The notes beneath the pieces were generated by a model that was not told where the DNA came from, did not search any database, and saw nothing but the letters and a program-made list of their open reading frames with translations. From contig OY969938.1 of NCBI GenBank assembly GCA_963704755.1, positions 1,740,001 to 1,772,000 on the forward strand: DNA of 32,000 nt. Reading direction: 5' to 3'. Within the stretch, counting starts at the first letter, position 1, and every line of letters starts with the position of its first letter. The translations under genes were made by a program, and so were the position numbers. This document shows positions 1-18,183 of this stretch, piece after piece. This DNA comes from an uncultured Chloroflexia bacterium (GTDB lineage: Bacteria; Chloroflexota; Anaerolineae; Anaerolineales; Anaerolineaceae).

Positions 1-557
1 ACGAAGTTGGTGCAATCCGAACCACCAAAGCTGCCATAATCGGGATTGATTTGAGAGGCGTAATCTTTGGCATATTTTGCAGCCGCTTGCCGATCATATG
101 TGACATATTTCGTCTTATAACCCGTTGGATCGACAAAGATGATCGGGTTAGCACTCGCGTATAACCATTGATTGAAAGTGATTGGGGTAAAATCGTCACC
201 CGCCCACGCATCCTTCCCGACAAACCTGCCCTCCACCGGGCTATAATACCTCGCCCGCAGATACACCAACCCTGTTTGCAGATCATACATCTCGCCGGTG
301 AAGGCATAATCGCTCACGGCATCGCCATCACTATACAATATCTCACCATAAGGGGTATAGCTTTGCGTCAGGGTAACTGCCCCGGCGTCATCTACTATCT
401 TTCGTACAGATCCCAAGGCGTCTGGAAGGAAATAACCCGCCTGGGTGTCGGATATCTGGGCAATGCGGCTAACTCCATAAAGGTAGGTATTCGTACTGTT
501 TTGCATCGAACCAGGATTGGCCCTACACACAAATTCAATAAGAAAGGGTGGTGCCAT
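1..557 (-). CDS. Orphan/truncated Rhs (YD-repeat) core C-terminus fused to a putative cell-wall amidase-type toxin domain; 3' end runs off the left edge (module 9)
   Basis: Absent from the ORF track because it is open at the window edge. My minus-strand translation starts at ATG 557..555, with a TAA just upstream. It reads MAPPFLIEFVCRANPGSMQNSTNTYLYGVSRIAQISDTQAGYFLPDALGSVRKIVDDAGAVTLTQSYTPYGEILYSDGDAVSDYAFTGEMYDLQTGLVYLRARYYSPVEGRFVGKDAWAGDDFTPITFNQWLYASANPIIFVDPTGY, then KTKYVTYDRQAAAKYAKDYASQINPDYGSFGGSDCTNFV. The first part is the canonical RHS repeat-associated core ending (FTGE..D..TGL.YLRARYY.P..GRF...NP....DP.G). The second matches the Y.R..A..YA...GG.DCTNF signature of the putative amidase / NlpC-like Cys-peptidase family. 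The + ORF 168..680 is its antisense shadow. Confidence 0.7.
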   Translation of the reverse strand, partial: MAPPFLIEFVCRANPGSMQNSTNTYLYGVSRIAQISDTQAGYFLPDALGSVRKIVDDAGAVTLTQSYTPYGEILYSDGDAVSDYAFTGEMYDLQTGLVYLRARYYSPVEGRFVGKDAWAGDDFTPITFNQWLYASANPIIFVDPTGYKTKYVTYDRQAAAKYAKDYASQINPDYGSFGGSDCTNF

Positions 558-577
558 AGCTCGTTAAAGGCAGCCCC

Positions 578-1921
578 CTACTCTACAGGGGCCAACCAAA
601 CCGCAGTGCCATACAAATATCCAAAATCAAAAACCTGGCGCTTTTCAACGTCAACCAGGTATGCAAACTTCCTGGCCTGAGCCAATAAATTGTTGGCCAG
701 GAATTGTTTCCCGTCCGGTGACCAAACCACTCCACCGGGATTCCCATTAAATTCGTCATGGGTATACTCAACGATCGCGGGGTCCCATACTTCTTCCCGT
801 TTAAAATCATAGACCAATAACCGGACATCCGCTTCCTCTTGGACGTAAAAGGAAAGATACTGTCCATCCGGAGACCAGGCAATCCCGCTGGCCCACAGGA
901 ACTTTTCTGAAATCGCCGGATCAAGTAAAGACTTTTCATTCCCTTCCCGATCGACCACGGTCAATTCCAGGGTTTTATGTTCACCGGCATCTGGGACGAA
1001 AATGGCAAAGCGGCTCCCGTCCGGTGACCATGCGGGTTCAGAACTCCACGGCCGGGCTGTCAACGAAATCAGGTTTCGCCGCCAAATTTCTGCATTCGTT
1101 TTTAGGTCCCAAAGTGAGATTGCACAAGTCGGTTGGACTGGGTCGGCTTCATAATATATCACCATCGAAAGTGAAGGGTCGTATTTCGGGGCGACTGAAG
1201 CGCTATACCAGTTTGGAACAGGCCAAAGTCTCCCATCGATCAGGTTAGGAAAAGTCGGCGTGATCAGTTGCGACTGCTGAGTAACCAGGTTATATAAAAT
1301 GAGCCTGCCCAAAGGGTATGGGTTTCCAACCGGGTATAGAAAAACCTGGGTATTCGAAGGCCAGTAGGCTATACCACTTGCTTGCAGCTTATCTAGATCC
1401 ACCGACTGATAGGAATCTCCATCGGTAAGGATCATGGAGGTTTTTACCGCTGTTTTGCTGAGCTCTTCCCGGATAAATGCAGCATGACGTTGATCCGGCG
1501 CCATCATCTGATTGCTATTATTATCTGCGAAAATGCAACAATCTTGTATCGAAAGGAACACTTCTGGAGATGCCATATCGCGTTGATATTTATCTACCAC
1601 TGCATGGAAACCAACCCCCTTCTGAACCGGATTGAACAAAATCGTGCCATCTGACAGGCTTTCTTTGTCCATAGCCGGGGGATTAACCTGAGGGTATTCG
1701 GATGCCGTCATCATTGAAGTAGGTGTTAAACTGGCAAACGGGGAAGGAGACGGCGTCGATCGCATGGGTATCGTTTCGGCCGTTGCCGGCCCTGGCGGTG
1801 TAACCGTCAGAGTCGAAATGCCAGTTGCCGTCATTTCTGGAGATGGATTGTTACAGCCGGCCAGGCAAAGAACAATCACGAGAACGCCAAATATTTTCAT
1901 TGTTTTTGATGAGAAGTTCAT
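578..1921 (-). CDS. Lipoprotein with PD40/TolB-like beta-propeller repeats (family-1 propeller); immunity candidate of module 8
   Basis: 447-aa ORF. Signal peptide MKIFGVLVIVLCLAGC carries a lipobox; an alternative start at 1900 is possible. Repeated WSPDG/AWSPDG blade motifs. The C-terminal architecture is shared with the ORFs at 2426..3742, 4193..5560 and 12483..13758. Confidence 0.75.
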   Translation of the reverse strand: MNFSSKTMKIFGVLVIVLCLAGCNNPSPEMTATGISTLTVTPPGPATAETIPMRSTPSPSPFASLTPTSMMTASEYPQVNPPAMDKESLSDGTILFNPVQKGVGFHAVVDKYQRDMASPEVFLSIQDCCIFADNNSNQMMAPDQRHAAFIREELSKTAVKTSMILTDGDSYQSVDLDKLQASGIAYWPSNTQVFLYPVGNPYPLGRLILYNLVTQQSQLITPTFPNLIDGRLWPVPNWYSASVAPKYDPSLSMVIYYEADPVQPTCAISLWDLKTNAEIWRRNLISLTARPWSSEPAWSPDGSRFAIFVPDAGEHKTLELTVVDREGNEKSLLDPAISEKFLWASGIAWSPDGQYLSFYVQEEADVRLLVYDFKREEVWDPAIVEYTHDEFNGNPGGVVWSPDGKQFLANNLLAQARKFAYLVDVEKRQVFDFGYLYGTAVWLAPVE

Positions 1922-1925
1922 TTTT

Positions 1926-2282
1926 CTACCATTGGCTTGCGAAATCCCGATAGCTCAGGCAATCGTTCGAAATGATTCGATCGGTTATTTCTTTAATCGA
2001 ATATCCTGGATCAGCTTGTGTTTTCCATACAATTTCTCCAAAGGTTTCTTCTTGATCATGAATATCGACAGGATGCTCAGGATCGAATAATTCGAGAACA
2101 ACATCTTTCTCTGTAGAATCGCCCAGGCAAATATTGGCCTGGGTGGTCGTTAAACTATCAATATTAGGGTAACCCAGGTAGGTTTTTCGATTCGAAACCC
2201 CCACGATGTCAGCCTCCAATGGGACCATTTTTCCATAGACCATTAGCGCCAATGGTGTCCGTTGATGCCTGGGCTCATTCAA
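1926..2282 (-). CDS. Hypothetical small protein (up to 118 aa), tightly coupled to the downstream propeller gene; lacks the conserved junction block
   Basis: The ORF ends 4 nt before the start of 578..1921. I recognise no motif. The listed start is TTG; in-frame ATGs at 2243 and 2228 are more compatible with the promoter-like element at 2282..2310. Confidence 0.4.
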   Translation of the reverse strand: MNEPRHQRTPLALMVYGKMVPLEADIVGVSNRKTYLGYPNIDSLTTTQANICLGDSTEKDVVLELFDPEHPVDIHDQEETFGEIVWKTQADPGYSIKEITDRIISNDCLSYRDFASQW

Positions 2283-2310
2283 TTATAAATTCGGACACTG
2301 TTTTCAGCAA
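2282..2310 (-). promoter_or_regulatory. Sigma70-like promoter candidate TTGCTG-17nt-TATAAT upstream of module 8
   Basis: The minus strand reads TTGCTG (2310..2305), a 17-nt spacer, then TATAAT (2287..2282), inside a 140-nt AT-rich gap. Such matches arise easily by chance in AT-rich DNA. Confidence 0.3.
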
Positions 2311-2425
2311 AATGAATTTTCTGCATTTTTGCTATATTACAGCAAAAACTTCATGTTTTTATAGAAAAGGTTTGTATTGGTCGATGTTTTTACCATACGC
2401 AAGAAATTTTCTCATGCCCACAAGC

Positions 2426-3742
2426 CTATTTCAACCAGCCCACAGGTTCGAATCCTTTTTTTACGATAGTTCCTTCCCCGGTTTGGATATCAAACACCAG
2501 TGTGGATGGATCATCATCTCCAGGTAGAATATAGGAAACAGCCAATTGATCGCTGGTTGGTGACCAGAAGGTCAAATAATCATAATTTTGGTTCCCGCTG
2601 TCGATGCAATAATCAGTAATGGATTGGGTTTGGGTATCCAATACGGCCAACTTCTGGTCGGTCCAGATGCGATGGGAGTCGTTGGTATACCAAAATGCCA
2701 GATAACGACCATCGGGAGACCAAACCAGTTTGGAGATCGAAACCGTCTCAAACGAGGAACTTAATTTGCTTGTGAGTAGGCTTTGACCATCTCGACCAAT
2801 GACGAAGATTTCGTACGCATAAGAGAGGTCGCTCGCCGGCACGAGTGGTGCAGTGTTGATGGCGACAGCAAATTTTTGGCTATCTGGTGACCAAGCCGGC
2901 CAATTGCCGTAAATATAAGTGCTTCGCAAGCTTGCCAGATCGGTGCCTTTCTCCATGTCTCGTAAAACCAGAACATGACCATTATCCTCATTGGAGGGAT
3001 ACACCATACGAGTCATCGTCGGATCATAGACATTTTAAAATGAACCAAAATATCCCCATTCAAGCAATGGTTCAAATACGAAGTTGTAGTCGGGAAGGTA
3101 AGGTTCTAGTAATTCTTGTCTTTGTGGCGATTCGAAAGGAGATACCAGCAATACCGAATTATCGTCGCGGTTGGGAGCGTTCATGAGGAATTGTTCATCG
3201 TTCAACCAGAAGTATTCGGATGGCTGTTCTAACGGTACCTGGGTAACCAAATTGGCCAACCGATCATAGATTTTTATGAAACCACTCGGACCTAAAGTAG
3301 AATAGATTCTTGTTGAAAAATAGCTACCCCCAGAAGAGGTATTTTCCGATAGAAAACGGTCTCCGCCAGGTGGTGAGATATATTGACCCTGGTTGGTTTC
3401 CAGGTCGAGGAACAAGATGTTTTTTAGGTTTTCCCGAACCAGATTTTCCATCACCAATATGCCTGGCAATTGGCCAGCAGGTTTGGGATTTATGGTGATG
3501 CACTGAATTTCTATCGTACCAGATTGTGCGGTTGGGGTCAGAGTAGGAGAGGATACAGGCACTTGTACTTGTGTTGCTGATGTTATTGCATTTGTAGGTA
3601 TAAGGCTTTCAGTGGTCGCGGTCCTTACAACTACGGAAGGTTTCACACTTTTGTACAAATTACACCCGGTAAGCACGACACACAAGGCTAACAGATTCAC
3701 AAAACCGAAGTAAACGAGCACAGAACGATCATTCCGGTTCAT
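2426..3742 (-). pseudogene. Family-1 PD40-like beta-propeller lipoprotein interrupted by a single in-frame TAA (module 7 immunity candidate)
   Basis: ORFs 3035..3742 and 2426..3016 are in the same frame, separated only by TAA 3035..3037 (...EWGYFGSF*NVYDPTMTRMVYPS...). The joined length of about 438 aa matches the paralogs. Signal peptide MNRNDRSVLVYFGFVNLLALCVVLTGC. WSPDS/WSPDG motifs. Ends ...PVGWLK like 4193..5560. Confidence 0.7.
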
Positions 3743-3765
3743 TGGCTTGATTTATTCCCAGGTAC

Positions 3766-4169: not shown

Positions 4170-4192
4170 GGCGTGATAACCGCATTTTGCGA

Positions 4193-5560
4193 TCATTTCA
4201 GCCAGCCTACCGGCCTCGCCTGATCTGCAATTTTCGTAATGGTATGGTTTTGAAGGTCCACCCAAAGAGTGCTGCTTTGCCAGTCTTTCCAATCCTCGAT
4301 TAGCAGAGATTTGCTATCCGGAGACCAGACGGGTCTGGTTGTATTTACTTGTCCCAATTGTGGGCCAAGATGGATATCATCTCCAAAACGAAATGGCCGC
4401 GAGTTTAGCTCCTGACAGAAGACATCCACTTTTTGGGTTTCCATATCTAATACTGCCAGTTTGCCTGTGTTCTTCGGAAGATTGGTCAAAAGCCAGAATG
4501 CAACGTAGCGGTTGTCAGGAGACCATACCGGTGAATCAATCAATAAATCCGGATAATCCTCCCGAAAGAAACTGACTTGCATCATCTCACCGGTTGAATT
4601 GATGAGATATAACTCATCGTGCCTTGTAAAAGGATCATTCTCCAAATCTGTAACCAGCAATAACTGGCTTCCGTCCGGTGACCATCTTACCCAATCAACA
4701 CGATTTATGGTTGAAAGTACCTTATTCTTTTTCACATTCCATAAGATTGAGGTATGCTTGTTTGAATCAAAATAATACGCATCATACAAAACCAATGAAG
4801 TATCAGGGCTATAGATGAGTGGAGACCCCCATGTCCAATAGATATCTCTATAAAAAATATTCGGAAAATTCGAGGACAGAATGTGTTGTTCATGATCAGA
4901 TAGGTTGATCGAAACCAGATCGTATACTGCTGTGCTTGTTGGATCCTGTAAATCTTCGCCATTTACGTACTGCCGGAAGAGAAGTTGTTCATTATTCAAC
5001 CAACCGAAAAAAGTCCAGCTTTCTGGAAATGAAAAGCGGTCGTATTCATGGCCATTGGAATCCACAATGTTTAGGTCTGCAGAAAAGTGTAAAGTTTTCC
5101 CTTCTGTTAATGCCAGTTTTTCCTTGTCCGGGGATTCGGCATAGATATAATATTCTGGTCCATCGGGCAAATCATAAAAAGAAACCTGGTTTAACTGTGG
5201 GTTCCAAAAAGTCAGTTTTGAGCCTGTATCCGGTTCCGGTATCCATAGCTCATCCCTTGTCAATTGATCGTCAGCGGCAAAGACAAGCGTTCCATCCAAA
5301 TTTGGTAATTCTTTAATCCCGACAATTTTCTCAGGGCAATAGGTATCGATCTCAAACTTATTGGCAGCAAAAGTAGGAGTCAAGTCTTTGATAGGTGTTG
5401 GTTGAAGTATCTCCGCTGTTTTTGTTGGTTCCACGGTTTGAGCACGGGTGCTTATTACAACCGGTACTTCCGTTCTCTGTGGTTGCTCTTTCGGAACTGC
5501 GGTACAACCCACCAGCAAAACCAGGAAAGATAACCCTAATGAGCTTCGAATACTTTTCAT
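4193..5560 (-). CDS. Family-1 PD40-like beta-propeller lipoprotein (module 6 immunity candidate)
   Basis: 476-aa ORF in the track. The probable start is MKSIRSSLGLSFLVLLVGC (ATG 5560), which carries a lipobox. Motifs RWSPDG, VWSPDN and VWSPDS. Ends ...RPVGWLK. Confidence 0.8.
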   Translation of the reverse strand: MKSIRSSLGLSFLVLLVGCTAVPKEQPQRTEVPVVISTRAQTVEPTKTAEILQPTPIKDLTPTFAANKFEIDTYCPEKIVGIKELPNLDGTLVFAADDQLTRDELWIPEPDTGSKLTFWNPQLNQVSFYDLPDGPEYYIYAESPDKEKLALTEGKTLHFSADLNIVDSNGHEYDRFSFPESWTFFGWLNNEQLLFRQYVNGEDLQDPTSTAVYDLVSINLSDHEQHILSSNFPNIFYRDIYWTWGSPLIYSPDTSLVLYDAYYFDSNKHTSILWNVKKNKVLSTINRVDWVRWSPDGSQLLLVTDLENDPFTRHDELYLINSTGEMMQVSFFREDYPDLLIDSPVWSPDNRYVAFWLLTNLPKNTGKLAVLDMETQKVDVFCQELNSRPFRFGDDIHLGPQLGQVNTTRPVWSPDSKSLLIEDWKDWQSSTLWVDLQNHTITKIADQARPVGWLK

Positions 5561-5626
5561 TGTTCGCCTTAATTTCAAGAACCGGTGTTTAGGACGATGG
5601 CCATTCACCACATAGTCTCCCATAAT

Positions 5627-5914: not shown

Positions 5915-6046
5915 AGTGGATAAATCTTTGAGGCATGAGAGTTGAACTAGCCAGTTTAGGCATCGTGGGTGAGGAAACGTCTAATAATCTTCCTCGGGTT
6001 CAAGATTTCTGGATTCGCTTAGGAGCCTTTAGTTTTATTTTATCTA

Positions 6047-7297
6047 TCATCTAATAATTTGATATTTATAAATTTTATTGTATACGACCATCCAAAGATT
6101 GTGCTGGCTATCCTCTTTTACTGGACTATAGCCATTCGTTATCATACACCATTTACCTTTTTCATATCCCTCCCGAATATCTAGACTTATTACACCACCC
6201 GTGGTGCTAAACCAAACTAAGCCATTTGAGCTTTCAAATATTGCCATTGTTTCAACCCAACCGTATCCTGGTTCGGGCGACTCGGCGTATCGGATAAACT
6301 CGGGCGGTGGAATAAGTTTATAAAATACTAAGTGTTCAGTATCGGAAAAGTCTACCCATCCTTCATGATCCAACCAGAAACGTTGCGACCAATCGAAATA
6401 TTTTGTTAATGGCTGGCGTAACAAATTCGAGAGGTCAATAGAGGGGATATCGGGTTCATTATTCGTTATACTATCAAATAATTTTGTCGTTTGATCATCT
6501 ATAAAATATTGAATTATTTTTCCATTCACTTGATCCTCACTCCACAGGCTTGATCCATCAGGAGCAATATTCAGAAGAAGAAATTCGCCTTGAAGTTGTA
6601 GAGGTTGGCGTTCAACTTCTAATGTCTCTGGATCGAAGCTATAAAGCGTTGACACATTTAAATCAGCATCTTTTACGAACATCCAGAATAACCCTTTGTT
6701 ATCTTCTACGACATCCGAACGAATCTCTCTGGGTGATTGTAAAACTCCCTGGTTATCCAAGATGAAATTAAATCTATCAATGGAAGCATTGTATTGACTA
6801 AGTAAAGGTATACCTTCTTGGTGCGATTGAAATACGTAATTTTCCGCCCACAATATTCCGTTTTTACTAAAGAATAATTTGTGTATCGGCAAAACGAAGT
6901 CATTTTTATCCAGTGTATAAATTTCCTTTTCGTTTTTATCCAAAGAATAAAGAACCAGTTGATTTTGCCCACCATCTCCATATGAAATCCAAATTTGATC
7001 GCTGTCATTTATTGCAAAATCCATCAGATAGGCATCATCTGGAATGGATCCAACTAAATTCCATTGAATAGGCGGAATTTCTTCAATTGTTCGCTGTTGT
7101 ACATCTCCCCCCATCGGAATGACTCCAAGGGAATTAATTGGTTGAATGCACTCGTCTTTTGTTACAAAATGGGTAGTCGCGTCCATCTCTCTGGATCGAT
7201 TTCTGGTTTCTGAAATTATCCCACTACATGCGAAAAGCAAGAAAACAAAAAATATGGGGATTCCATGTCTAATTAGTTTTCTGTCCATTAATGACAT
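6047..7297 (-). CDS. Beta-propeller lipoprotein of a different type (two-component-regulator-propeller-like G.LW repeats); module 5 immunity candidate
   Basis: The track ORF runs 6047..7315 with a TTG start. The ATG at 7297 gives MSLMDRKLIRHGIPIFFVFLLFACSG, which has a lipobox. Repeated QIWISYG, GILWAEN, GLFWMF, SLWSED, GLVWFST and NLWMVV motifs. Confidence 0.7.
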   Translation of the reverse strand: MSLMDRKLIRHGIPIFFVFLLFACSGIISETRNRSREMDATTHFVTKDECIQPINSLGVIPMGGDVQQRTIEEIPPIQWNLVGSIPDDAYLMDFAINDSDQIWISYGDGGQNQLVLYSLDKNEKEIYTLDKNDFVLPIHKLFFSKNGILWAENYVFQSHQEGIPLLSQYNASIDRFNFILDNQGVLQSPREIRSDVVEDNKGLFWMFVKDADLNVSTLYSFDPETLEVERQPLQLQGEFLLLNIAPDGSSLWSEDQVNGKIIQYFIDDQTTKLFDSITNNEPDIPSIDLSNLLRQPLTKYFDWSQRFWLDHEGWVDFSDTEHLVFYKLIPPPEFIRYAESPEPGYGWVETMAIFESSNGLVWFSTTGGVISLDIREGYEKGKWCMITNGYSPVKEDSQHNLWMVVYNKIYKYQIIR

Positions 7298-7302
7298 CCG
7301 GT

Positions 7303-8161
7303 TTATTCTGTACAAGACCAGTTCATTGATTCCAGCACGTCCTGAAATACGTTATCGTTATTAGCCAGATCTATATGCTTAATATCTTTATATATTGGAT
7401 GATTTGCTTGCTCTAGATCCAAAATGGCCCTATCACCATATATAGCTCCTTTTATATTTATAAATATTGGATTTCTATTATTGTCTAGATCATTTGGGGT
7501 ATCGGCTAGAAACAGCGGGGTTTTTGAAGCAATATTGTCTGCTAATGTATCCATATCATTAATATTCGGATAATCAGGATATGCTGATAATGTTGGATCC
7601 AATAATACAATTCAATTGATCAAAGTAGTACCTATGATTGCAGAGGCAGTCAAAACAGCGACATCTGCTCCTCCACTATGACCAATAAAAATGAAATTTG
7701 CCTCTGAATTCTCGTTTTTTATTTGCCCAATTTCTTGTTCAGCCTCAGATGCACAATTTGTTTTTGGTGAACATGAATCGTAATTAATGGATTGAATCTC
7801 ATAATTATTGTCAGTGGCCCATTTATAATATGGCGAAAGCGATAGTCCCACACCGCAGGTTAACCCTTTTCCACAAAACAGAAAAACATAAGTGAAATCG
7901 AGAAGAAATTCACAAGGCTCTGGAGTTTCTACGGGAGATAATGTAAACGACATTGTCTGCTCACCTTCAATCGTAATGGCCGTTACATCAAGTTCATAAT
8001 TTTTGGTTTGGGGAATTGCTATCCATGTTGCAGTTACTGTTCCTTCACTATTATTGGCAGTACCACTGCTGCTTCCACACGCCGTCAAACTCATCCCGAC
8101 TGCCGCTACCATCACCAGGGCGATAATCAAACCATCCCACTTGCCGTGCTTTTTCTGACAT
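7303..8161 (-). pseudogene. Cassette (module 5): junction signal peptide + alpha/beta-hydrolase (lipase/esterase-like, GHSGG) domain, split by an in-frame TGA; ATG one nt out of frame
   Basis: ORFs 7612..8130 and 7303..7602 share one frame across TGA 7612..7614 (...IIGTTLIN*IVLLDPTLSAYP...). The nucleophile elbow FIFIGHSGGADV lies before the stop; candidate Asp (VLLDP) and His (IKHID) lie after it. ATG 8161..8159 sits just upstream of the block in the wrong frame (see findings). Confidence 0.65.
8088..8157 (-). repeat. Junction block copy 3 (QKKHGKWDGLIIALVMVAAVGMSLTAC)
   Basis: Hand alignment. This is the shortest copy; homology starts at the basic cluster. Confidence 0.85.
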
Positions 8162-8225
8162 TGTTATGATCAGATTTGCAACTATTGCTTGAAGCCAATA
8201 CATTTAATTGATTGATTGCTCTCAA

Positions 8226-8254: not shown

Positions 8255-8257
8255 TTC

Positions 8258-9325
8258 TTAAGGGGCTAATGTCCAATCCGGTGAATCATTAAAACCTGGA
8301 AGATCAGTTAACTGGGTTATATTCGACCCATCTGGTTTCATTACATAGAGATTGTAATTCCCACTCAGGGTTGAAGAAAAAACAATATAATCGCCTCGCG
8401 GAGACCAAGAGGGATCAATATGGTTAATCAACGGAGTTGTTTCAGATCGAGGGGTAATTCTTAATATACAATCCTTGTTTGTGCCATCAGCGTTCATAAC
8501 GCTAATTCCCAAACAAGACCCTTGCAAAGAATTAAACGCAATTTGATTACTATCAGGCGACCAGCGAGGCGTTTTATCCATAGTGAACTGACTATTATTT
8601 AGCCCGGTTAATTGCCTTAGGATCGTGCCACTAATATTCATTAAATAGATACTTTCTGGTGAATATCTACTATTAATATTCTTTCTCAGAATTGCTGATA
8701 TTGCAATCACATCTCCATTTGGAGACCAGGATGGTTGACCTTTCCAATCGCTATTATTTGTTATTTGTTGTTGCTGTGAACCGTCATTGTTAATTATATA
8801 GTATTCGCTGGCAGAAGTATCTGGGTTTGAAATGTAAATGATTTTTTTTCCATCTGGTGACCAGGTGGGATATCCCGCACCAGTTGGAGTTGTATCTTGT
8901 GTTAGCTGGCGTTGATCACTGCCATCCGCATTCATAACAAAAATTTGAGGAAGCCCTCCAGTGCTTCCAGTAAAGGCAATTAGTTTTCCATCTGGTGACC
9001 AGACTGGGGCGTATCCAGAAACCAAATTGGGAGTTAGGTTTTTCAACCCAGTTCCATCTGCATTGATTACATACACATTAAAAGAAGCATCAAATACGAT
9101 TTTCCCTTCTAGCGAAGATAAATCGAGTCCCCCTTGAGTTCCTTTCTGAACTGGCATAAAGGTTGGAAGTGAAGTTTGTACAAATGTAGATGTAGTAGTT
9201 AAGGTAGCGGTCAAAGTGGAGTTATTTGCTTCTGGGCCATTCTCAAGGCTTGCCACACACCCCATGAACAATAAACCCACAAAAAACAATAGCATGATAT
9301 CGTATTTGTGTTTTAGGTTTCGCAT
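8258..9325 (-). CDS. Canonical TolB-like PD40 beta-propeller lipoprotein (module 4 immunity candidate)
   Basis: 355 aa. Signal peptide MRNLKHKYDIMLLFFVGLLFMGC. Regular PD40 blades: VWSPDGKLIAFTG, TWSPDGKKIIYIS, SWSPNGDVIAIS, RWSPDSNQIAFNS, SWSPRGDYIVFSS, plus VINADGTG / VMNADGSD / IINNDGSQ / VMNADGTN / VMKPDGSN turns. AGGTG RBS 5 nt upstream. Confidence 0.85.
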   Translation of the reverse strand: MRNLKHKYDIMLLFFVGLLFMGCVASLENGPEANNSTLTATLTTTSTFVQTSLPTFMPVQKGTQGGLDLSSLEGKIVFDASFNVYVINADGTGLKNLTPNLVSGYAPVWSPDGKLIAFTGSTGGLPQIFVMNADGSDQRQLTQDTTPTGAGYPTWSPDGKKIIYISNPDTSASEYYIINNDGSQQQQITNNSDWKGQPSWSPNGDVIAISAILRKNINSRYSPESIYLMNISGTILRQLTGLNNSQFTMDKTPRWSPDSNQIAFNSLQGSCLGISVMNADGTNKDCILRITPRSETTPLINHIDPSWSPRGDYIVFSSTLSGNYNLYVMKPDGSNITQLTDLPGFNDSPDWTLAP

Positions 9326-9332
9326 GACACAC

Positions 9333-10172
9333 CTATTGAATGATTTTGCTCACCCTGGAAATAAAGTGGGTATTTTCCCCATATGCGTTGTCAAAATCGG
9401 ATTTTTTCATTGCACCTACAAAGTTGTCCAATTGTCCTAATCCATTTTGGTTGCCTACTTTTAGGTCAGAACCTGTATCCGCTACAGTAAAAACTTTTCC
9501 AGGATAAGCATCGATCATAACTTTATCGCCACACGCTAAGTCAGGGTTATTAGTGGCTACCGTTTTCCCTTCTTCGATTGGATATGAATATTTGCAAGAA
9601 CCTCCTTTTTTATAAATAAACACGAATTTTCCATTCTCTTTATCACTCAAGCCATCATCAATTGAGATGTAATGGTTATCCGCAGTGAGACCTGTACCCT
9701 GGACAAGGACACTCCAATGTTGATCCGTGGCATCGTCGTCCTCATAAATAAAATCAACATTATGAGTTTGAGTTTCGATTTTGTTTCCAACTTTCACCTG
9801 AATATCTATCGAACGGTCAGCCCAAGATGAACGAACACTATCATATTTATAATAATCATCACTCTCCATTGGTATAGTATAGTGAGTTATTAGGAAATCG
9901 TAATTAAATGGAATGCTTACTTGGGTTGCCGTCGCGGTGCAATAAGTGGGAGACGATGTTACTGTTTCATCAGTTGAGGTAACCGTGGTAGAAATTGTTA
10001 CTGCTTCAGTTGGAGTTCTGAGTCGGCATCGATGTAGGCTCTATAACAATTTCATCCGTTCCTGTAGAAGTCGTCACCGTTTTACTACACGCCGTCAAAC
10101 TCATCCCGACTGCCGCCACCATGACCAGGGCAATAAGCAACCCGTCCCACTTGGCACGTTTCTTCTTGCGTC
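9333..10172 (-). pseudogene. Cassette (module 4): junction signal peptide + Thr-rich linker + 3D (MltA/YuiC-like double-psi barrel) domain, one frameshift in the linker
   Basis: The signal-peptide frame reads RFFRRKKKRAKWDGLLIALVMVAAVGMSLTACSKTVTTSTGTDEIVIEPTSMPTQNSN* with its stop at 10007..10009. The body frame opens after TAG 10041..10043 and reads TPTEAVTISTTVTSTDETVTSSPTYCTATATQ...MESDDYYKYD... The body ends with ACGDKVMIDAYPGKVFTVADTGSDL...LDNFVG, the 3D-domain Asp pattern. No start codon precedes the basic region. Confidence 0.65.
10088..10172 (-). repeat. Junction block copy 4
   Basis: Hand alignment. Confidence 0.85.
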
Positions 10173-10258
10173 TAAAGAATCTATCTAAAATTTGCCCGAA
10201 AAAGCTTGGGAGAATAATTCGCCCATTACCATAACAGCCATGGGACGAAAATCAATAA

Positions 10259-11290
10259 TTAATCCATTGAATTCCACCATACTGCATCGCCAATATTTAT
10301 ACTTTCTGATGTGCGGATTATTTGGGTCAATCCTGTTCCGTCAGAATTGATTGCATAAATTTTGTAGTCACCATCTAGGTTGGAATTAAGTAGGATATGT
10401 TTACCATCAGACGACCATGTGATTCCTGAAAAGTAGATAAGGGCATTGGATGATTGTTTCAGCAAACAATTTTGCTCAGTCAGATCGAAACTATCGATTT
10501 CGATCCCAACGCATTGAGAAGTTCTTCGATCAGGTGAATAGGCAACCCACTTCCCATCTGGAGACCAAGCTACTGGCCCAGTTGTTACAAGCTCAGGATA
10601 TTCCTTTTGGACGATACCATTCTCATCTACCACATAATTAACGAATGAAAATCTAGTATTAAACTCCGAAATCGCAATCAGCCCATCAGCACGGTAATAG
10701 CCCGTCAAAGGAATATCGTCAGGTTTTTTCTCCACAACAAATCGGTGTCTATCTGTTCCATCTGATTTCATAATATAGATTTGAGGCACTGATTTGCCGT
10801 TAATATTTACAAACTCATCATCAAATGAACCGAACATAATAGTTTTTCCATCCGGAGACCAGGAAGGTTTAAAATCACTTTTATCCCCAGATGTTAATCG
10901 GGTAAAGCCAGAGCCATCGGGTTTAATAATGTATATCCGATATATATCACCTTCCCACGCTGAAAAGGCAATAGATTTTCCATCAGAGGCCCAGGAAAGA
11001 TCGCCAATATACTTAAGACTCGGAGGAGTAACATCAACCTGATTACTGCCATCCGCATTCATAACTTGAATATGATAGTCAGGCATAACACCGGTTATAA
11101 AGGCAATTTTTCCGGTAAGAAATGCCAATGGCGAAGTAGCTGTTGCCAAACCAGATTCTGTTTCTGTTAATGAATGAGTGGGTTGTTGAGTAGGCATAGA
11201 TTCAAAAACAGAGCACCTAGAAAGATTGGTTATGGCAAGGAAGATAATATAAAAGGCCTTTATTATTACGATAACAAAATTCTTTCTCAT
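10259..11290 (-). CDS. Canonical TolB-like PD40 beta-propeller protein with N-terminal signal/anchor (module 3 immunity candidate)
   Basis: 343 aa. Motifs VMNADGSN, SWASDGKSIAFSA, IIKPDGSG, SWSPDGKTIMFGS, IMKSDGTD, AWSPDGKWVAYSP, TWSSDGKHILLNS, AINSDGTG. Its start overlaps the upstream stop as ATGA (11287..11290). Confidence 0.85.
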   Translation of the reverse strand: MRKNFVIVIIKAFYIIFLAITNLSRCSVFESMPTQQPTHSLTETESGLATATSPLAFLTGKIAFITGVMPDYHIQVMNADGSNQVDVTPPSLKYIGDLSWASDGKSIAFSAWEGDIYRIYIIKPDGSGFTRLTSGDKSDFKPSWSPDGKTIMFGSFDDEFVNINGKSVPQIYIMKSDGTDRHRFVVEKKPDDIPLTGYYRADGLIAISEFNTRFSFVNYVVDENGIVQKEYPELVTTGPVAWSPDGKWVAYSPDRRTSQCVGIEIDSFDLTEQNCLLKQSSNALIYFSGITWSSDGKHILLNSNLDGDYKIYAINSDGTGLTQIIRTSESINIGDAVWWNSMD

Positions 11291-12338
11291 GGTTGCACTC
11301 GGGCTGCCTTGAAACGTTTCCCATCATATTGTGTAAATGAGGGATTATGATAATAATTATCGTAGGTCTGTGCACCCACATAAATATCGAAGTGATCTGG
11401 GCCACCATCGGGAACCGTAAAGGTTCCCGAATCACTTACCGTAAAAACTGTGTTCTCGAATCCCGGAATGTCTAGATAATATTTATCACCACATCTATGA
11501 CCGTCCTCCAAATTCAATTTATCGCTGGCAACGGCAATACTTGCGTTTTCTGTCAATGAAATACCGCACGCGCCATGAATTTCGTTTGTAAAGTAATACA
11601 CAGCGCTGGGCTGCCAGTTGTTAACTGGATCGGGGAGGTGATTCTTATCAACGTCTGCTTGAACATATTTCAAACCTCCACTCATTTGCAATGATTGAGA
11701 TTCGGTTAACTCACCTGACCCTTGAAGGGATACACGCCAATTTCCACAGTTACCCTCACATGCATTTCCAACGTAGAAGGCATATTTAGGAACTTTATCG
11801 TAATAAATATCTGCTTTGCTTGAGAAGGGTGGTGAATAAAATGGCACATATTTTTGAAGATTTTTATCTTCGGAAGAAAAAAAAGGATCGTTTTCTGTCA
11901 CTGTAGCATAATGAGTGATTAATACTGTATCTGCGAGCCAATCCCTCAGAGCTGCTGTCCCAGTGCATAGAGTAGGTGTAACCGAAGGAGTCGGCGTTGG
12001 AGTTTGAGTTTTCTGTGTGATTGTTGCCGAATAATTAAAAGTCTGTGTTGCCGTTGATGGAGGCATTACCTGTCCTTCTATTGTTGCCGTGGGCGTCTCC
12101 GCCGAGAAAGAACATGCTGTCAAGGTAACACCGAATGCCGCCACCATGACCAACGCAATGAGCAGCCCATCCCACTTGCCACGCTTTTTCTTGCGCCCGA
12201 AGACCAGCGCCAGCAGGGCCAACGGCGCCACCAATGAGGCAGACGGGTCCCAGGGAACATATGGGTTGGTCTGGTTGGTTTTGGCGTCGCGGGTGAGGAA
12301 GCGCCCGGTAGATGGGTCATAATACTGGCCGTTGCCAA
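11287..12338 (-). CDS. Only uninterrupted cassette (module 3): Rhs-core remnant + hydrophobic/KKKRGK/lipoprotein-signal-peptide junction + Thr/Pro linker + 3D (MltA-like) domain
   Basis: The stop-to-stop frame is open from 12338. It reads VGNGQYYDPSTGRFLTRDAKTNQTNPYVPWDPSASLVAPLALLALVFGRKKKRGKWDGLLIALVMVAAFGVTLTACSFSAETPTATIEGQV...TPTPTPSVTPTLCTG...SIAVASDKLNLEDGHRCGDKYYLDIPGFENTVFTVSDSG...HFDIYVG. There is no ATG; the first alternative start is TTG 12234, so independent translation is doubtful. Confidence 0.7.
12112..12338 (-). repeat. Junction block copy 5, extended with Rhs-core remnant, core and signal peptide in phase
   Basis: Hand alignment. This is the most diverged copy, and most of its differences are synonymous in the signal-peptide frame. 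Confidence 0.8.
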
Positions 12339-12482
12339 CTTAACAGAGGCAAGTTATTAGTCCCATAATGCCACTCAATTAACCAGAGCAAAATTGAGCC
12401 CTACAAAATACTAACATAATTGCAATTAAGAACAAATAGCGGAATGGGAAAAAGAAATTATTGTCATTAACTTTGGCTTCAA

Positions 12483-13758
12483 TTAATTTGGTTTTACAAT
12501 CCATCCAATGGCATTAGAATCAGTGGCAAGATTATATAACTTTCGGGTTTGAATATCGACCAGGAGTAACTCACCAAAACCATTAACATCTGTATTGGAT
12601 ATTGCCAAAAAATGGCTGTCGGGTGACCAAACTGGTGGTACATTCTCATTGTTTGCTGAAGGCAGGGCGTTGATACAAAAACCTTGGGGAACCTCTGAAT
12701 GTAAATCCAGGATTATGTATTTTGAATCGGTTTCCCCGTTCCAATCATACTCGATTTGGAAGGCCAGGTATTTTCCATCCCAAGACCGGCTGGCTTTTGA
12801 AAAAACTGGGGGGCTTTTGAGAAAACTGTTGAAATTTGTAATTCGCTTGATATCCCCATTTCTGGTGATTTGATACCATTCTATCCCGTGATCTGGCCAA
12901 ACATCCATGATCAAAAAGTCGCTTCCATCACTTGACCAAAGTGGATTGTTTGTCCAACTTTCATAAAAATAATCCAGTTTTGCCACAACGGAGTTATTTT
13001 CAATATTCCATAATGCCAAATAAATCATGTCATCCGATTCTTGGGGATAAACCAACCGGGTAAGCGTAGGATCGGGCAAAACATCCCCATGTCCAAAAAA
13101 ATTTGGGGATGCTACGCCGCCCGATTTAAAGGTTTTATAATCCGGTAAATCCTCCAATCGGAATACATGTTCCTTTTCTGTGAATGGATTCCAGATAACT
13201 GTTGTAAAAAAACCTTCTCCATTTATTTGGTGGGTGATAAGTAATGAATCCTTGGAAAACCAGCCTTCTAAAAAGTGATAATCTTCTTTTCTTACTTTCT
13301 GACCTTCCGAACTACCCACTAAAAAACTAGAAACAGGTTCTACAGCAGAGAGAGTCTGGTCATTATTTTGATAGGCGACCCATTTCCCGTCCGGCGAAAT
13401 AAAATAATTCCATGGAAAATTCTCAAGAGAAATGTTTAGATCAACCTTTTTATTGGTATCGAAACTATACAAAGCTGGGATCCCTTCATGCACGACAAAC
13501 AGATTCCAAGGAAGATCGTCGCCGTCTAGAAACGAAGAAGATGTTTCCAAACAACCTGAGAATAACAAATCCTGCAAACTTTGTACTTTTGGTTGTGTCG
13601 TTATTTTTGTAGGAAGCAAAATAGGGGTAGTATTTTCTCCTCCGCTAGTCGCTGTGGGTTGATCGGAAATGCTAGAAGAATTTAAAACTGTGGTCACTGC
13701 AACCGATCAACAGTATAGTAACGAAAAAGTATCCGAGAAAAAATTTCCATTTTGGCAT
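12483..13758 (-). pseudogene. Family-1 PD40-like beta-propeller lipoprotein with a frameshift just after the lipobox (module 2 immunity candidate)
   Basis: ATG 13758 gives MPKWKFFLGYFFVTILLIGCSDHSFKFF*. The 404-aa body ORF (12483..13697) is in another frame that is closed upstream by TGA 13707..13709, so the shift lies within 13672..13707. The body has ISPDGKWVAY, LWSSDGSDF, SWDGKYLAF and VWSPDSHFLAIS motifs and ends ...AIGWIVKPN. Confidence 0.65.
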
Positions 13759-13787
13759 TTCTTGCCTTTCATTTCTCTTTATGGTTT

Positions 13788-14573
13788 TTATTCTGACCAT
13801 CGAGCCGGGTTATCGCAAAGTGCGGAATGAGTTATACCTCCTAATGGATTCGAGTTATTGTAGAAATTAAGTTGACAGAATGTGAAGGCATAGTAATTCT
13901 CTATATTAGCCCCAATCTGATTGATTTTTCGGCCAAATTTTTCCACTGTAGAAGATTTAGATATTACATTACTATAAAAAGTCGGATTAAATCCAGACTT
14001 GCTGTTTCCCCATTCTATTAGGGGATCATCTATCGCTGATCCTTCTTTCCAATGATCCATCAAAACCAGTGTCACTGTATCCCCCAATCAGCCTGCTGAA
14101 AAAACTTCACAGTAGCCGGTTACCAACAAAGCACCGGGGATACTGGTCCCTGGGTTTCTTTTGTAAAAAGCATAATGAATATATTGGTTAAGATTATATC
14201 CATTGATTTATGCTATTTTTCGCAACAAGGTGGCAAAACTGAAGAAATGGCTGCTTGACTTTGGGTTCTCCCTTAAATAGTCATCGAGAATTCTGACGTC
14301 GTTGTTGGCGTTGACGTAGGTTCCACCTGTCCTTCTACCGATGCCGATGGAGTCTCCGTAGAAAAAGTACACGCCGTCAAACTCATCCCGACTGCCGCCA
14401 CCATCACCAGGGCGATGATCAAACCATCCCACTTGCCGGTCTTCCCCTTGTGCATCAGCAGGGCTAATGGCGCCACCAGCGAGGCAGATGGGTCCTTGCG
14501 AAGCACCCTGTGGGCAGGGGACGTAGGGATTGGTCTGGTTCGCCTTGGCCTCGCGGGTCAGAAAGCGCCCGGT
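13788..14573 (-). pseudogene. Cassette (module 2): Rhs-core remnant + junction signal peptide + linker + unrecognised body; several lesions
   Basis: The remnant reads TGRFLTREAKANQTNPYVP. A 19-nt length difference relative to copy 5 puts it out of phase with MLRKDPSASLVAPLALLMHKGKTGKWDGLIIALVMVAAVGMSLTACTFSTETPSASVEGQVEPTSTPTTTSEFSMTI* (stop at 14273). The downstream frame is open to 13788 except for TAA 14208..14210 and TGA 14088..14090. I do not recognise the body domain (...GALLVTGYCEVFSAG*LGDTVTLVLMDHWKEGSAIDDPLIEWGN...) and its true frame is uncertain. Confidence 0.5.
14369..14573 (-). repeat. Junction block copy 6, extended with Rhs-core remnant (out of phase)
   Basis: 14487..14573 is identical by eye to 16709..16795 (87 nt). 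Confidence 0.85.
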
Positions 14574-14627
14574 GAAAACAAATCTTTAATATTAAAGAAT
14601 TAAAAGCACAGTCTTATCCTATTGCAT

Positions 14628-15658: not shown

Positions 15659-15676
15659 AACGATTTTCCCAAGAAA

Positions 15677-16808
15677 TCAATTATTTGAAGGAAAAGGCGG
15701 GTTACCCGTCAGCCAAAGAGGCGTATGCTCGTTCATATAATCCCTCCTTTTCGTCCCCCAACTGTTTGCATCAATATCAACAAATCCTGCTCCATCATAA
15801 ACCCAACTCAGAAACATATCCGCAAATGCTTCACGATGCTTAATAATATCATCCTCAGGATTATTAGGTCTTACAGGATGCATTCTTCAAAGCATCGTTT
15901 GATATTCTGGACCTGGATAGTTAAACCCTGCAATTGTTAGAAATTCGCCATATGGATACGATAAAGTATATGGACTGCCAAGGACATATCCTTGTTTACC
16001 AGATTAGTCTTTATATGCCCAGAGATTCGCGAATGCATGACCTAACTCATGAATTACATTATGCACATTCATCTCATGGGCCATCTCAGGGGTTCTATTA
16101 TATTCGCCAGTCGCAGATTTAGATGGATCATAGAATGGCTTTTGAACTGCAAACTCTATCCACCAGGCTGAATGAGTATAACCACCTGCCCCATTACATG
16201 CAGGCAGGTTCCGACCAGAAATTTCAACTTATGGGATGCACTTAGCCGAAATATACTGATAAAACTTGTTATCGGATCCTTCCCTAAAGTACGCCCAAAT
16301 GCATTTGCCACCAGGATCACTGCGTCCTTGAAGTAGGATTTGTATTCGTCGATAACATCAACAAATTGTATAAGGTCCCATAATTCATCCCATCGATCGA
16401 TGGTGGGTTCAGGGGTTTTGGTTATAGTAGCCGTACAAGTAAACGTCGGGGGCGCTGTTACAGGCGGTGGGGTTTCTGTTTGATTAGGAACAATCGTCTT
16501 ACCAGTAGCTTCAACTGTATAATCTCCATTCGGTGTAGGCGTAGCCGTAATTTGGGCGGACAAGGTGGATGTATTAACCGCAGTTGGATCACACACCGTC
16601 AAACTCAAACCCACTGCCGCCACCATCACCAGGACGATAATCAAACTATCCCACTTACCACGCTTTTTCTTGCGGCCGAAGATCAGCACCAGCGCCACCA
16701 GAGAGGCGGATGGGTCCTTGCGAAGCACCCTGTGGGCAGGGGACGTAGGGATTGGTCTGGTTCGCCTTGGCCTCGCGGGTCAGAAAGCGCCCGGTAGATG
16801 GGTAGATC
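15677..16808 (-). pseudogene. Cassette (module 1): Rhs-core remnant + junction signal peptide + Thr/Pro linker + gluzincin-type metallopeptidase domain (HELGH ... EAFAD), decayed
   Basis: ORF 16156..16728 reads MLRKDPSASLVALVLIFGRKKKRGKWDSLIIVLVMVAAVGLSLTVC...TAPPTFTCTATITKTPEPT... There is then a frameshift within 16156..16228. My translation continues ...ACNGAGGYTHSAWWIEFAVQKPFYDPSKSATGEYNRTPEMAHEMNVHNVIHELGHAFANLWAYKD, then TAA (16004..16006), then SGKQGYVLGSPYTLSYPYGEFLTIAGFNYPGPEYQTML, then TGA (15887..15889), then RMHPVRPNNPEDDIIKHREAFADMFLSWVYDG... Confidence 0.65.
16591..16808 (-). repeat. Junction block copy 7, extended with Rhs-core remnant (out of phase)
   Basis: KIYPSTGRFLTREAKANQTNPYVP..., then the same 19-nt-longer variant seen in copy 6. 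Confidence 0.85.
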
Positions 16809-16831
16809 TTATTATCCGCAAAATCTTCATT

Positions 16832-17059
16832 TCACACCGTGTGATACACATTTTTATTCCAATCCGACCAATCTTCGGGGCCATGATACATATATGGAAT
16901 GCCTTTGCTTATTTGCTCTAAGCTTGTTCTTTCAAAAACCCCACCTTTTTTAGGGTGAGTACCTGTCACCCAATTCCCTTGAGTATCTGTAATGGCAGCA
17001 TTTTCGGGGTCGTAATAGGACCTTTTTTTCGGAGGTGGGGTGGGTTGTCGGACATTCAC
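16832..17059 (-). CDS. Hypothetical 75-aa ORF at the island edge, in frame (across one TGA) with the first Rhs remnant; possibly a decayed Rhs fragment
   Basis: MNVRQPTPPPKKRSYYDPENAAITDTQGNWVTG...NKNVYHTV*NEDFADNKIYPSTGRFLTRE, with the TGA at 16832..16834. SYYDPEN weakly resembles the RYYDPE.GRF core motif. The start is GTG with no spaced RBS, and the frame opens inside the terminator hairpin. Confidence 0.3.
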   Translation of the reverse strand: MNVRQPTPPPKKRSYYDPENAAITDTQGNWVTGTHPKKGGVFERTSLEQISKGIPYMYHGPEDWSDWNKNVYHTV

Positions 17060-17068
17060 TCCATCGAT

Positions 17069-17110
17069 TAAAAAGGGAAGAACCCCTCACATTCGGGGTT
17101 CTTCCCTTTT
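17069..17110 (-). terminator. Rho-independent (bidirectional) terminator after livM; boundary between core DNA and the island
   Basis: aaaaAAGGGAAGAACCCCtcacattcGGGGTTCTTCCCTTttt. A 14-bp perfect stem (17072..17085 / 17094..17107) with an 8-nt loop, flanked by an A-run and a T-run, 22 nt downstream of the livM stop. Confidence 0.85.
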
Positions 17111-18181: not shown

Positions 18182-18183
18182 GA

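Follow-up and report, generated by a model that had tools for sequence, protein, structure and literature searches.

The DNA considered here is a 32,000-nucleotide (nt) stretch of an Anaerolineaceae genome (contig OY969938.1, positions 1,740,001 to 1,772,000), called the window throughout, and its subject is the island at positions 1-17110, which is read on the minus strand. Taken as a whole, the island is probably a decaying orphan array of Rhs (YD-shell) toxin cassettes and immunity genes, of an Anaerolineae-specific subclass in which the end of the Rhs core runs into a predicted hairpin with a lipobox. There are about ten co-directional toxin-like units, and an exported beta-propeller or lipoprotein gene lies downstream of eight of them. 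Seven units carry the hairpin junction, one has a canonical Rhs core (unit 9), one has no assigned family (unit 8) and one is an extra fragment (unit 0). Because the array starts inside a toxin, its cores are shorter than those of its relatives, its toxins are nearly all broken and most of its lipoprotein genes are intact, it is best read as a relic with chiefly an immunity role today, the junctions being left-over recombination handles. A first-pass annotation, made from the letters of the DNA, had described an orphan toxin/immunity array of nine units under one junction theme. The array reading is upheld by full-length genes, orphan arrays and conserved gene pairs in relatives; the count is about right, but the junction is present in only seven of the nine, and a tenth piece lies at 16832-17059. 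That annotation also gave too little weight to decay. Most of the array consists of pseudogenes and its 5′ end is cut off, so that it is no armed system but a relic and a store of immunity.

The junction is a block of about 100-120 nt that occurs in seven copies (at 4053, 5787, 8054, 10064, 12089, 14346 and 16568), spaced 1.7-2.3 kb apart. Its 66-nt core encodes KWDGLIIALVMVAAVGMSLTAC, with a mean identity of 86% between copies and a maximum of 98%. The third codon positions of this core are 75% identical, and the 100-nt flanks on each side about 38%. The junction has four parts: a trimmed end of the Rhs core, a short hydrophobic helix, a basic loop (RKKKRGK) and a second helix closed by a lipobox of the form L-[AS]-[AG]-C. 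The features of a bacterial lipoprotein signal peptide (basic n-region, hydrophobic h-region and a lipobox of the form [LVI][ASTVI][GAS]C) are all there, as RKKKRGK, a 21-residue hydrophobic stretch and then LTAC, LAAC or LSAC, the Cys being present in more than 90% of homologues. The junction is unusual, as had been remarked, and only short pieces of core remain: the core remnants of the junction units in the window measure 0-14 amino acids (aa). The Rhs-derived stretch TGRFLTR..NPYVP is clear in three of the seven junction units and leaves a degenerate trace in one; the most core kept by any of them is ‘GQYYDPSTGRFLTRD..NPYVPWDPSA’. The sole uninterrupted copy (12339..11290) starts straight after a stop codon and reads VGNGQYYDPSTGRFLTRDAKTNQTNPYVPWDPSASLVAPLALLALVFGRKKKRGKWDGLLIALVMVAAFGVTLTAC; after its junction come a linker rich in Thr and Pro and a domain of 215 aa. 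For the first half of the junction, a PEP-CTERM-like or sortase-type C-terminal sorting signal was considered and rejected, since the frame always runs on into the lipobox helix and the payload.

The units, numbered from right to left along the minus strand, and the right border of the island are as follows (ORF, open reading frame; E, expectation value).

17070..17110, minus strand: intrinsic terminator, right border of the island, with a perfect 15-bp stem (AAAAGGGAAGAACCCC/GGGGTTCTTCCCTTTT), an 8-nt loop and a T-run
16832..17059, minus strand: unit 0, a piece from the inside of a zincin toxin, with 54% identity to residues 256-322 of P0069, a zincin payload of 374 aa
16590..16806, minus strand: junction copy 1 (IYPSTGRFLTREAKANQTNPYVP..KDPSASLVALVLIFGRKKKRGKWDSLIIVLVMVAAVGLSLTVC), with a 19-nt insertion at 16717-16735 that shifts the frame
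15677..16590, minus strand: unit 1 payload, gluzincin-like (HELGH...EAFAD), with frameshifts and stops; its pieces match a continuous gene at 5476-6336 of locus L024
14628..15665, minus strand: unit 1 immunity-like lipoprotein gene, a frameshifted pseudogene read in three frames
14370..14590, minus strand: junction copy 2, with a 19-nt insertion at 14495-14513
13788..14370, minus strand: unit 2 payload remnants; the linker stops 33 aa after the Cys and a 99-aa ORF follows
12483..13760, minus strand: unit 2 immunity-like propeller gene, its lipoprotein signal MPKWKFF..LLIGC out of frame with a 404-aa body
11290..12339, minus strand: unit 3 toxin, the only uninterrupted toxin frame, with an 11-aa YD remnant, junction, Thr/Pro linker and MltA-like domain (11290-11934)
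10259..11290, minus strand: unit 3 immunity-like PD40 propeller, intact, in ATGA overlap with the toxin stop; PD40 E 6.5e-18
9333..10185, minus strand: unit 4 toxin, the second MltA-like payload; the upstream half of the junction is lost and the linker has a frameshift
8258..9325, minus strand: unit 4 immunity-like PD40 lipoprotein (LFMGC), intact; PD40 E 3.7e-30
7303..8156, minus strand: unit 5 toxin, a GHSGG lipase-like hydrolase with only the lipoprotein-signal half of the junction and one in-frame stop
6047..7315, minus strand: unit 5 immunity-like lipoprotein (LLFAC) with Reg_prop repeats, intact; 32% identical to 13616-14959 of locus L010
5627..5980, minus strand: unit 6 toxin position, with a degenerate core trace (RRFLTHDA, then a stop), junction and Thr/Pro linker; the toxin domain is deleted
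4193..5560, minus strand: unit 6 immunity-like PD40 lipoprotein (LLVGC), intact, with a PD40 profile match and homologues in L012 and L043
3767..4173, minus strand: unit 7 toxin position, with a junction in which Cys is replaced by Phe and a frameshifted, truncated payload start
2426..3742, minus strand: unit 7 immunity-like PD40 lipoprotein (VLTGC), in two ORFs of the same frame separated by a single in-frame stop
1926..2282, minus strand: unit 8, a 118-aa ORF in toxin position, with no junction and no family match
578..1921, minus strand: unit 8 immunity-like PD40 lipoprotein (CLAGC), intact, with a PD40 profile match
1..563, minus strand: unit 9, a canonical Rhs core remnant of about 110 aa (..RARYYSPVEGRF..NPIIFVDPTG) and the start of an Amidase_6 domain, running off the window

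Each unit has its own history of loss. Unit 0 has no junction, no N-terminal part and no downstream gene, and is joined after ‘..NEDFAD’ to the next junction; since it starts in the middle of a toxin at the operon terminator, the array must once have reached further upstream. The lipoprotein gene of unit 1 opens with the signal MNKIQLRK..LLVGC, which is followed by a ‘DCSLPCIWGI’ body. The 99-aa ORF of unit 2 is the C-terminal end of a payload of the P0025 type (38% identity to residues 348-424 of 434). Positions 3767-4145 of unit 7 and 14060-14438 of unit 2 form a 379-nt duplicate, spanning the junction and the payload start at 92% identity, and the two copies lie beside different downstream lipoprotein genes, a sign of rearrangement within the array. 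The unit 3 toxin is 52% identical to the homologue P0002 over 100% of the query, and no plausible start codon stands upstream of its junction. Both halves of the unit 5 hydrolase match one continuous protein (P0108 or L030) at 50-62% identity. The earlier statement that a junction heads every unit does not hold for unit 8, which has none, or for unit 9, which has a canonical core in its place. A homologue search with the unit 8 ORF returned only the ORF itself and nothing outside the source genome. A further canonical Rhs core fragment, the 126-aa P0127 with almost no C-terminal domain, is found on the source contig outside the window, and may lie just beyond its left edge.

Decay has struck the two gene classes to different extents. 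Only one of about ten toxin frames is intact (unit 3), and that one is without a credible start codon, unit 9 being cut by the window edge; five of the eight immunity-like genes are intact. The lesions are frameshifts, stops, deletions and the replacement of Cys by Phe in unit 7.

The junction has 262 homologues, mostly from metagenome-assembled genomes of Anaerolineae/Anaerolineales and from metagenomes. The 120 best of these 262 matches were listed, and 117 homologues were scanned for domains. TIGR03696 is matched by 94 of the 117 and NF058595, named ‘lipo-invert putative C-terminal anchoring domain’, by 66 (best E 1.3e-8). In a set of 111 junctions, the median net charge of the basic loop is +5 and the second helix is typically 21 residues long (median); 73 of the set have LAAC, LSAC or LTAC as their lipobox. 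The 40 residues after the Cys are 20% Thr and 20% Pro, and the whole stretch after the Cys has a median length of 271 aa.

The gene to which such junctions belong is seen in the loci of relatives, which were taken from GTDB representative genomes and in which the junction ends Rhs ORFs of 2,300-3,500 aa. The full-length gene that an orphan array calls for, carrying the same junction, is therefore found in relatives (L008, L010-L014, L037 and L039). In L010 the ORF has 3,490 aa, with 22 RHS repeats, a DUF6531 domain, an N-terminal signal peptide and a zincin payload. The 2,342-aa ORF in L037 has a signal peptide and ends in a junction with Amidase_6, and a PD40 lipoprotein gene follows it. In L008, L011, L012, L013, L014 and L039, more than 2,000 aa precede the junction. 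In these full-length relatives the lipoprotein-type signal lies 2,000-3,400 residues from the N-terminus, unlike ordinary lipoprotein signals. An apparent lack of full-length genes, none of the 120 best matches being longer than 572 aa, is overturned by these genome loci; the junctions of full-length genes probably score just under the listing cut-off. Downstream of the full-length gene stands a lipoprotein gene, after which come orphan modules that keep 4-540 aa of core, the remnants in active-looking arrays measuring 120-540 aa. In L001, seven modules are packed into 17 kb, interleaved with propellers of the PD40/Tricorn type, and orphan arrays are also present in L003, L010 and L037.

The Asp pair of the Rhs autoprotease differs between the two kinds of core. 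In RhsA, the pair is D1324 and D1346, and changing either Asp to Asn blocks cleavage (PMC8765631). Both Asp residues are kept in 29 of 113 junctions of the hairpin family (P0002-P0120), and the second is Asn in 47 of the 113. The canonical-core relatives of unit 9 (P0122-P0173, counted where the motif can be aligned) have Asp in 26/26 and 19/19 at the same positions. For the second position the Fisher p value is 2e-5; the first Asp was equated between the two kinds of core by motif alignment only. The intact copy in the window reads TRD...WDPSA, with Gly changed to Ala, and unit 9 has the standard VDPTG. These counts suggest that self-cleavage may have been given up in the hairpin family, and the frequent loss of the pair fits a changed step of toxin release.

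The recognised payloads are enzymes of the envelope type (MltA-like, gluzincin-like, lipase-like and amidase), and their toxicity is putative. One and the same junction precedes MltA-like, zincin, lipase-like and other payloads. The domain assignments of the first-pass annotation hold at the profile or fold level, with differing strengths. At the left edge, a Rhs core fused to an amidase-like domain had been described: the unit 9 core matches TIGR03696 at E 3.3e-18 (66 bits, cut-off 32.5), and Amidase_6 (PF12671) is matched at E 2.2e-7 (31.6 bits against a gathering threshold of 23.2), with profile positions 2-35 of 163 inside the window. The GHSGG alpha/beta hydrolase of unit 5 is likewise supported by Lipase_3 (E 1.3e-5). 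The two domains called 3D/MltA-like have no Pfam match, PF06725 (3D) included, even at E up to 1, and a PDB sequence search with a 12-sequence profile of this payload family found no match either. An MltA-like fold is seen in a confident structure model, which has a predicted local distance difference test score (pLDDT) of 84 and a predicted template modelling (TM) score (pTM) of 0.83, and whose twelve best PDB fold matches are all MltA lytic transglycosylases (E 1e-4 to 2e-2, probability 0.91-1.0, TM 0.36-0.49). The invariant acidic residues of this family are E14, D16, D168 and D183.

For the putative gluzincin, the HExxH...E motif (H94, E95, H98 and E181) is invariant in 17 homologues, which agrees with the earlier call, but the matches to zinc peptidases by fold and by sequence are only weak. 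By fold, the gluzincin anthrax lethal factor comes closest (E 7e-3, probability 0.96), and the sequence matches are myroilysin at E 1e-3 and Peptidase_MA_2 at E 0.07; the copy in the window is a pseudogene. Pfam has no match for the ORFs of units 2 and 8, for the immunity protein of the zincin or for the payload of L012. The payloads recognised in homologues are peptidoglycan deacetylase, lysozyme, C39-like peptidase (Peptidase_C39_2), amidase and MltA-like domains, together with HExxH enzymes in 25 of 120, and no nuclease, deaminase or ADP-ribosyltransferase is among them.

The downstream partners are mostly propellers. With a cut-off of 20.9 bits, PD40 is matched at 103.6 bits by 8258-9325, at 64.6 bits by 10259-11290 and at 28-35 bits by 578-1921, 2426-3016 and 4193-5623; Reg_prop propeller repeats are found in 6047-7315. 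The gaps between toxin and partner measure 4-30 nt, apart from the ATGA overlap at 11287-11290, so that the close spacing noted earlier is accurate. Several of these pairs recur in relatives. The MltA-like toxin and its PD40 partner are adjacent again in L003, with 60% and 51% identity and once more a 4-nt overlap, the partner (10259-11290) being 51% identical to the gene that follows P0002 there. The zincin and the ‘CxLPCxWGI’ lipoprotein are neighbours in L024 and L010; the unit 1 lipoprotein is 33% identical to the gene after the L024 zincin, and has weaker matches after the L010 zincin. Over its full length, the unit 6 lipoprotein has 39% identity to the gene that follows the full-length Rhs gene in L012 and 43% to the one that follows a short junction module in L043.

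A signal peptide or membrane anchor opens the downstream gene of every one of the related modules (33 of 33), and about 28 of these genes have a lipobox when judged by eye. This regularity supports both the orphan-array reading and a meeting of toxin and immunity proteins outside the cytoplasm, and it agrees with the earlier proposal that the payloads are aimed at the envelope and opposed by exported partners. In the product of 10259-11290, ‘NLSRC’ stands where the L003 homologue has a standard lipobox (LAGC), and this protein may be signal-anchored rather than lipidated. A survey of polymorphic toxins in 2012 stated that no propeller domains were found among immunity proteins (PMC3482391).

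A 19-nt insertion, CCCACAGGGTGCTTCGCAA, splits the CCCTGG Pro-Trp codon pair of two junction copies (16717-16735 and 14495-14513, minus strand); these two matches in the window compare with 0.02 expected by chance. With small variants, it interrupts orphan Rhs cores at 12430 and 18660 in L010 and at 8410 in L030. It also occurs 11 times on ten metagenome contigs of the Joint Genome Institute (L051-L060), most of which represent a different Rhs family and one of which has two copies 1,666 nt apart. Ten of these eleven copies are located at the Trp of a ‘Y-x-P/A-W-G-D/E’ motif that opens the core domain. Overall, the insertion CCCWMAGGRTGCTTCGCRA is found in a (C)CTGG Pro/Ala-Trp pair, at two different Trp codons and in several unrelated genomes. 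It was seen only in orphan modules and in no full-length gene. The insertion shifts the upstream frame by +1 and gives the downstream part an in-frame start, GTG or ATG, which is always kept, and gene callers start P0004 and P0031 at this codon. Translational bypassing across it was considered and rejected, there being no matching take-off and landing codons. The candidate explanations are a small element inserted at a target site, the footprint of an excision and a cassette that supplies start codons. One copy of the 24-nt insertion motif, at 175-198 of L059, stands in a context without recognisable Rhs sequence, and the motif may not be strictly tied to Rhs genes.

The surroundings of the island are of a different character. 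As had been described, the island is AT-rich, with all its long ORFs on the minus strand: its guanine-plus-cytosine (GC) content is 37-49% over 1-17000, against 52-60% for the remainder to the right. Within the island, the junctions have a GC content of 54-60% (for example 12110-12339), which is near the 55% of the neighbouring genes, and the payloads and immunity genes one of 36-43% (for example 7303-8050). This contrast is as expected if the cassettes were acquired from elsewhere while the handle evolves with resident rhs genes. The terminator at 17110-17070 closes an upstream operon of five genes for an ATP-binding cassette (ABC) transporter, and the island begins straight after it; its 15-bp hairpin and T-run, which were read directly from the sequence and were missed by an automatic terminator scan, bear out the border given earlier. 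The operon is of the Liv/Urt type (branched-chain amino acid / urea), and the label ‘liv’ is approximate, all operon matches being below equivalog cut-offs. No YD-repeat gene lies upstream within the window, in agreement with the earlier remark that a full-length rhs gene is missing there. Rfam and tRNA scans of the window gave no matches, and no recombinase or mobile-element genes were seen in it. A 498-aa ORF at 17132-18628 shares about 440 nt with the end of the permease gene before it; the true start of the permease gene at this place is probably near 18190 (MQKSKSS..), and the long N-terminal extension an artefact of ORF listing.

The architecture of the full-length relatives suggests how such a protein probably works. 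An N-terminal signal peptide, as seen in relatives, would export the YD shell of 2,000-3,400 aa. The shortened core end of the shell (GQYYDPxTGRFLTRDxxPNxxNPYVPWDPxGA) leads into a hydrophobic helix of about 13 residues and a loop of net charge +5 (RKKKRGK), after which come the 21-residue helix with the lipobox, the Thr/Pro linker and an enzyme domain of about 200 aa. By the positive-inside rule, helix 1 would stop transfer, the basic loop would remain in the cytoplasm and helix 2 would re-export the toxin, so that shell and payload would both be outside and only the RKKKRGK loop inside. Lgt would then act, followed by signal peptidase II, which would cut before the Cys. The product would be a toxin anchored by lipid to the outer face of the membrane, the shell still being held by the hairpin. 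The cognate immunity proteins, predicted to be lipoproteins and mostly beta-propellers, would be in the same compartment. The GC-rich junction could also act at the DNA level, as a homology handle through which cassettes could be swapped into a full-length gene. For the island itself, the likely present role would be protection against Rhs toxins of related cells, together with that of a residual reservoir. The more far-reaching proposal, in which Anaerolineae no longer shut the toxin inside the shell until aspartyl autoproteolysis frees it but have rebuilt Rhs delivery around a shell tethered by its hairpin to the membrane of the producer, a lipid-anchored wall enzyme released by signal peptidase II and propeller immunity, with the 19-nt insertion as a targeted element that locks cassettes off or supplies their start, is put forward only tentatively and is rather doubtful as a whole.

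Several points weigh against reading the island as a relic of this subclass. Unit 8 has neither a junction nor a homologue. The first hydrophobic segment is short for a membrane span, the processing of an internal lipobox is a prediction made from sequence alone, and the window copy matches NF058595 (residues 22-110 against profile positions 22-98 of 113, E 1.6e-4) at 21.9 bits, which is below the curated cut-off of 37. Toxicity and neutralisation are putative for every member of the family, and the difference between five intact immunity genes of eight and one intact toxin of about ten, being based on small numbers, is suggestive. Two protein searches found, among the matches listed, only P0001 (a window protein) and P0127 traceable to the source contig, and no full-length rhs gene. 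A degenerate 34-nt junction pattern that fits each of the seven copies of the window had no match in the genome contigs and metagenome contigs searched. A junction in the same genome that resembled the copies of the window should have ranked among the matches listed, pseudogenes and unlisted matches aside, and the recombination partner may be absent from the source genome.

This last point bears directly on the alternative of a cassette store that is still live. The junction would then be shared with a full-length rhs gene at another place in the genome, cassettes would be swapped into that gene by homologous recombination through a GC-rich handle of about 100-250 nt, and the array would still provide toxins and immunity. 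Orphan modules of enterobacterial Rhs loci do recombine into the main rhs gene, and the junctions are conserved at the DNA level, synonymous sites included; moreover, unit 3 is intact from junction to stop codon, and the full-length genes of relatives have orphan modules downstream. However, of the roughly ten toxin units nine are interrupted, cut short or of unassigned nature, the 120 best of 262 matches include no junction protein from the same genome where one should have scored, and the core remnants of 0-14 aa are far from the 120-540 aa kept in the active-looking arrays of relatives. A live store is thus an unlikely, though not a remote, description of the island.

Two further explanations are much less probable. 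The units could be stand-alone lipoprotein genes, that is wall-remodelling enzymes and TolB-like propellers with a shared signal peptide, the Rhs-like residues being incidental. Each junction does contain a complete lipoprotein-type signal, the payload types are used in wall turnover and in two copies the 19-nt insertion provides an in-frame GTG start, but the same signal is found in frame at the end of Rhs proteins of 2,300-3,500 aa in relatives, 94 of the 117 homologues have the Rhs core domain, and most window copies are interrupted and without a start codon. The AT-rich, hypervariable payloads with co-varying partners also form the pattern of polymorphic toxins, and this explanation is accordingly very improbable. 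It is harder still to believe that the modules are in fact whole and appear interrupted only through mistakes of assembly or sequencing in AT-rich DNA. The source is a single 4.87-Mb contig, possibly from a long-read assembly, and some of the breaks are single-base frameshifts. Yet the stops in units 5 and 7, the lost domain in unit 6, the truncations of units 0, 2 and 7, the change of Cys to Phe and the 19-nt insertion, which is also present in other genomes, cannot be homopolymer indel errors. Every tract of at least seven A or T falls within an ORF that stays open across it, and none of the twelve neighbouring genes beyond the island is broken. For these reasons we think that the breaks are real rather than sequencing artefacts.

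Rhs toxins are known mainly from Gram-negative secretion systems, in which the toxin is caged in the shell and freed by self-cleavage. The island and its relatives point to a possible second arrangement in a little-studied, filamentous and mostly uncultured phylum. Should the internal lipobox be processed, release of the toxin would have passed to a general housekeeping protease. The island also illustrates the end state of such arrays, in which toxins decay and immunity genes persist, and with the junction as a precise sequence tag, metagenomes could be searched for many uncharacterised enzymes that act on the cell wall and for the inhibitors of these enzymes.

The closest known systems are the orphan rhs-CT/rhsI arrays that lie downstream of enterobacterial rhs genes and those of wapA and cdiA-CT, in which a co-directional piece of core, a variable toxin and a downstream immunity gene are repeated in the same manner. 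The contrast between a GC-rich core and AT-rich cassettes, and a homology handle that allows cassettes to be swapped into the main gene, are likewise shared with the enterobacterial arrays. Each system nevertheless has its own features. The island has no adjacent full-length gene, is truncated at the terminator of a housekeeping operon and keeps only 0-14 aa of core in its junction units. In Enterobacteriaceae the demarcation is PxxxxDPxGL followed by the toxin, while in the island it would be a membrane hairpin with a lipobox; the enterobacterial immunity proteins are small and cytoplasmic, while the candidates in the island are predicted to be exported lipoproteins. Poly-immunity loci and acquired interbacterial defence islands resemble the array in that immunity genes are kept without working cognate toxins (5/8 intact, against 1 of about 10), but the immunity genes of the island still lie beside recognisable wrecks of toxins.

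The junction itself has partial counterparts. The NF058595 domain has the same hydrophobic segment, basic cluster and signal-like segment ending in Cys, but its tail is short and C-terminal, whereas in the island family the element is internal, with about 270 aa of linker and enzyme domain after it. A literature search found no paper on this ‘lipo-invert’ domain, whose proposed role is known only from its name, and a search on Rhs proteins in Chloroflexi/Anaerolineae found no description of the present architecture. The family is apparently undescribed in the searchable literature, even though the hairpin itself had already been noticed by the NCBIfam curators. In teneurins, the C-terminal plug of the YD shell is uncleaved and the C-terminal domain is outside the shell (PMC8765631). 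Cleavage of the plug is absent, or at least not universal, in teneurins and their bacterial counterparts, which agrees with the many losses of the Asp pair in the hairpin family. Teneurins, however, are anchored in the membrane at the N-terminus and have no hairpin with a lipobox. Those bacterial teneurin-like proteins that have been described are attached through N-terminal lipoprotein or S-layer anchors (PMC13018210). Myxococcus SitA provides a precedent for polymorphic toxins that are lipoproteins, these being passed between related cells by outer-membrane exchange (PMC5562445). The signals of SitA proteins are N-terminal lipoprotein signals of the usual kind, and the proteins lack a fused Rhs shell and act in the cytoplasm, all of which sets them apart from the hairpin family. 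The island itself is a further Rhs orphan array, and what is new in it is the junction, the lipoprotein propeller partners and the degenerate autoprotease of the family.

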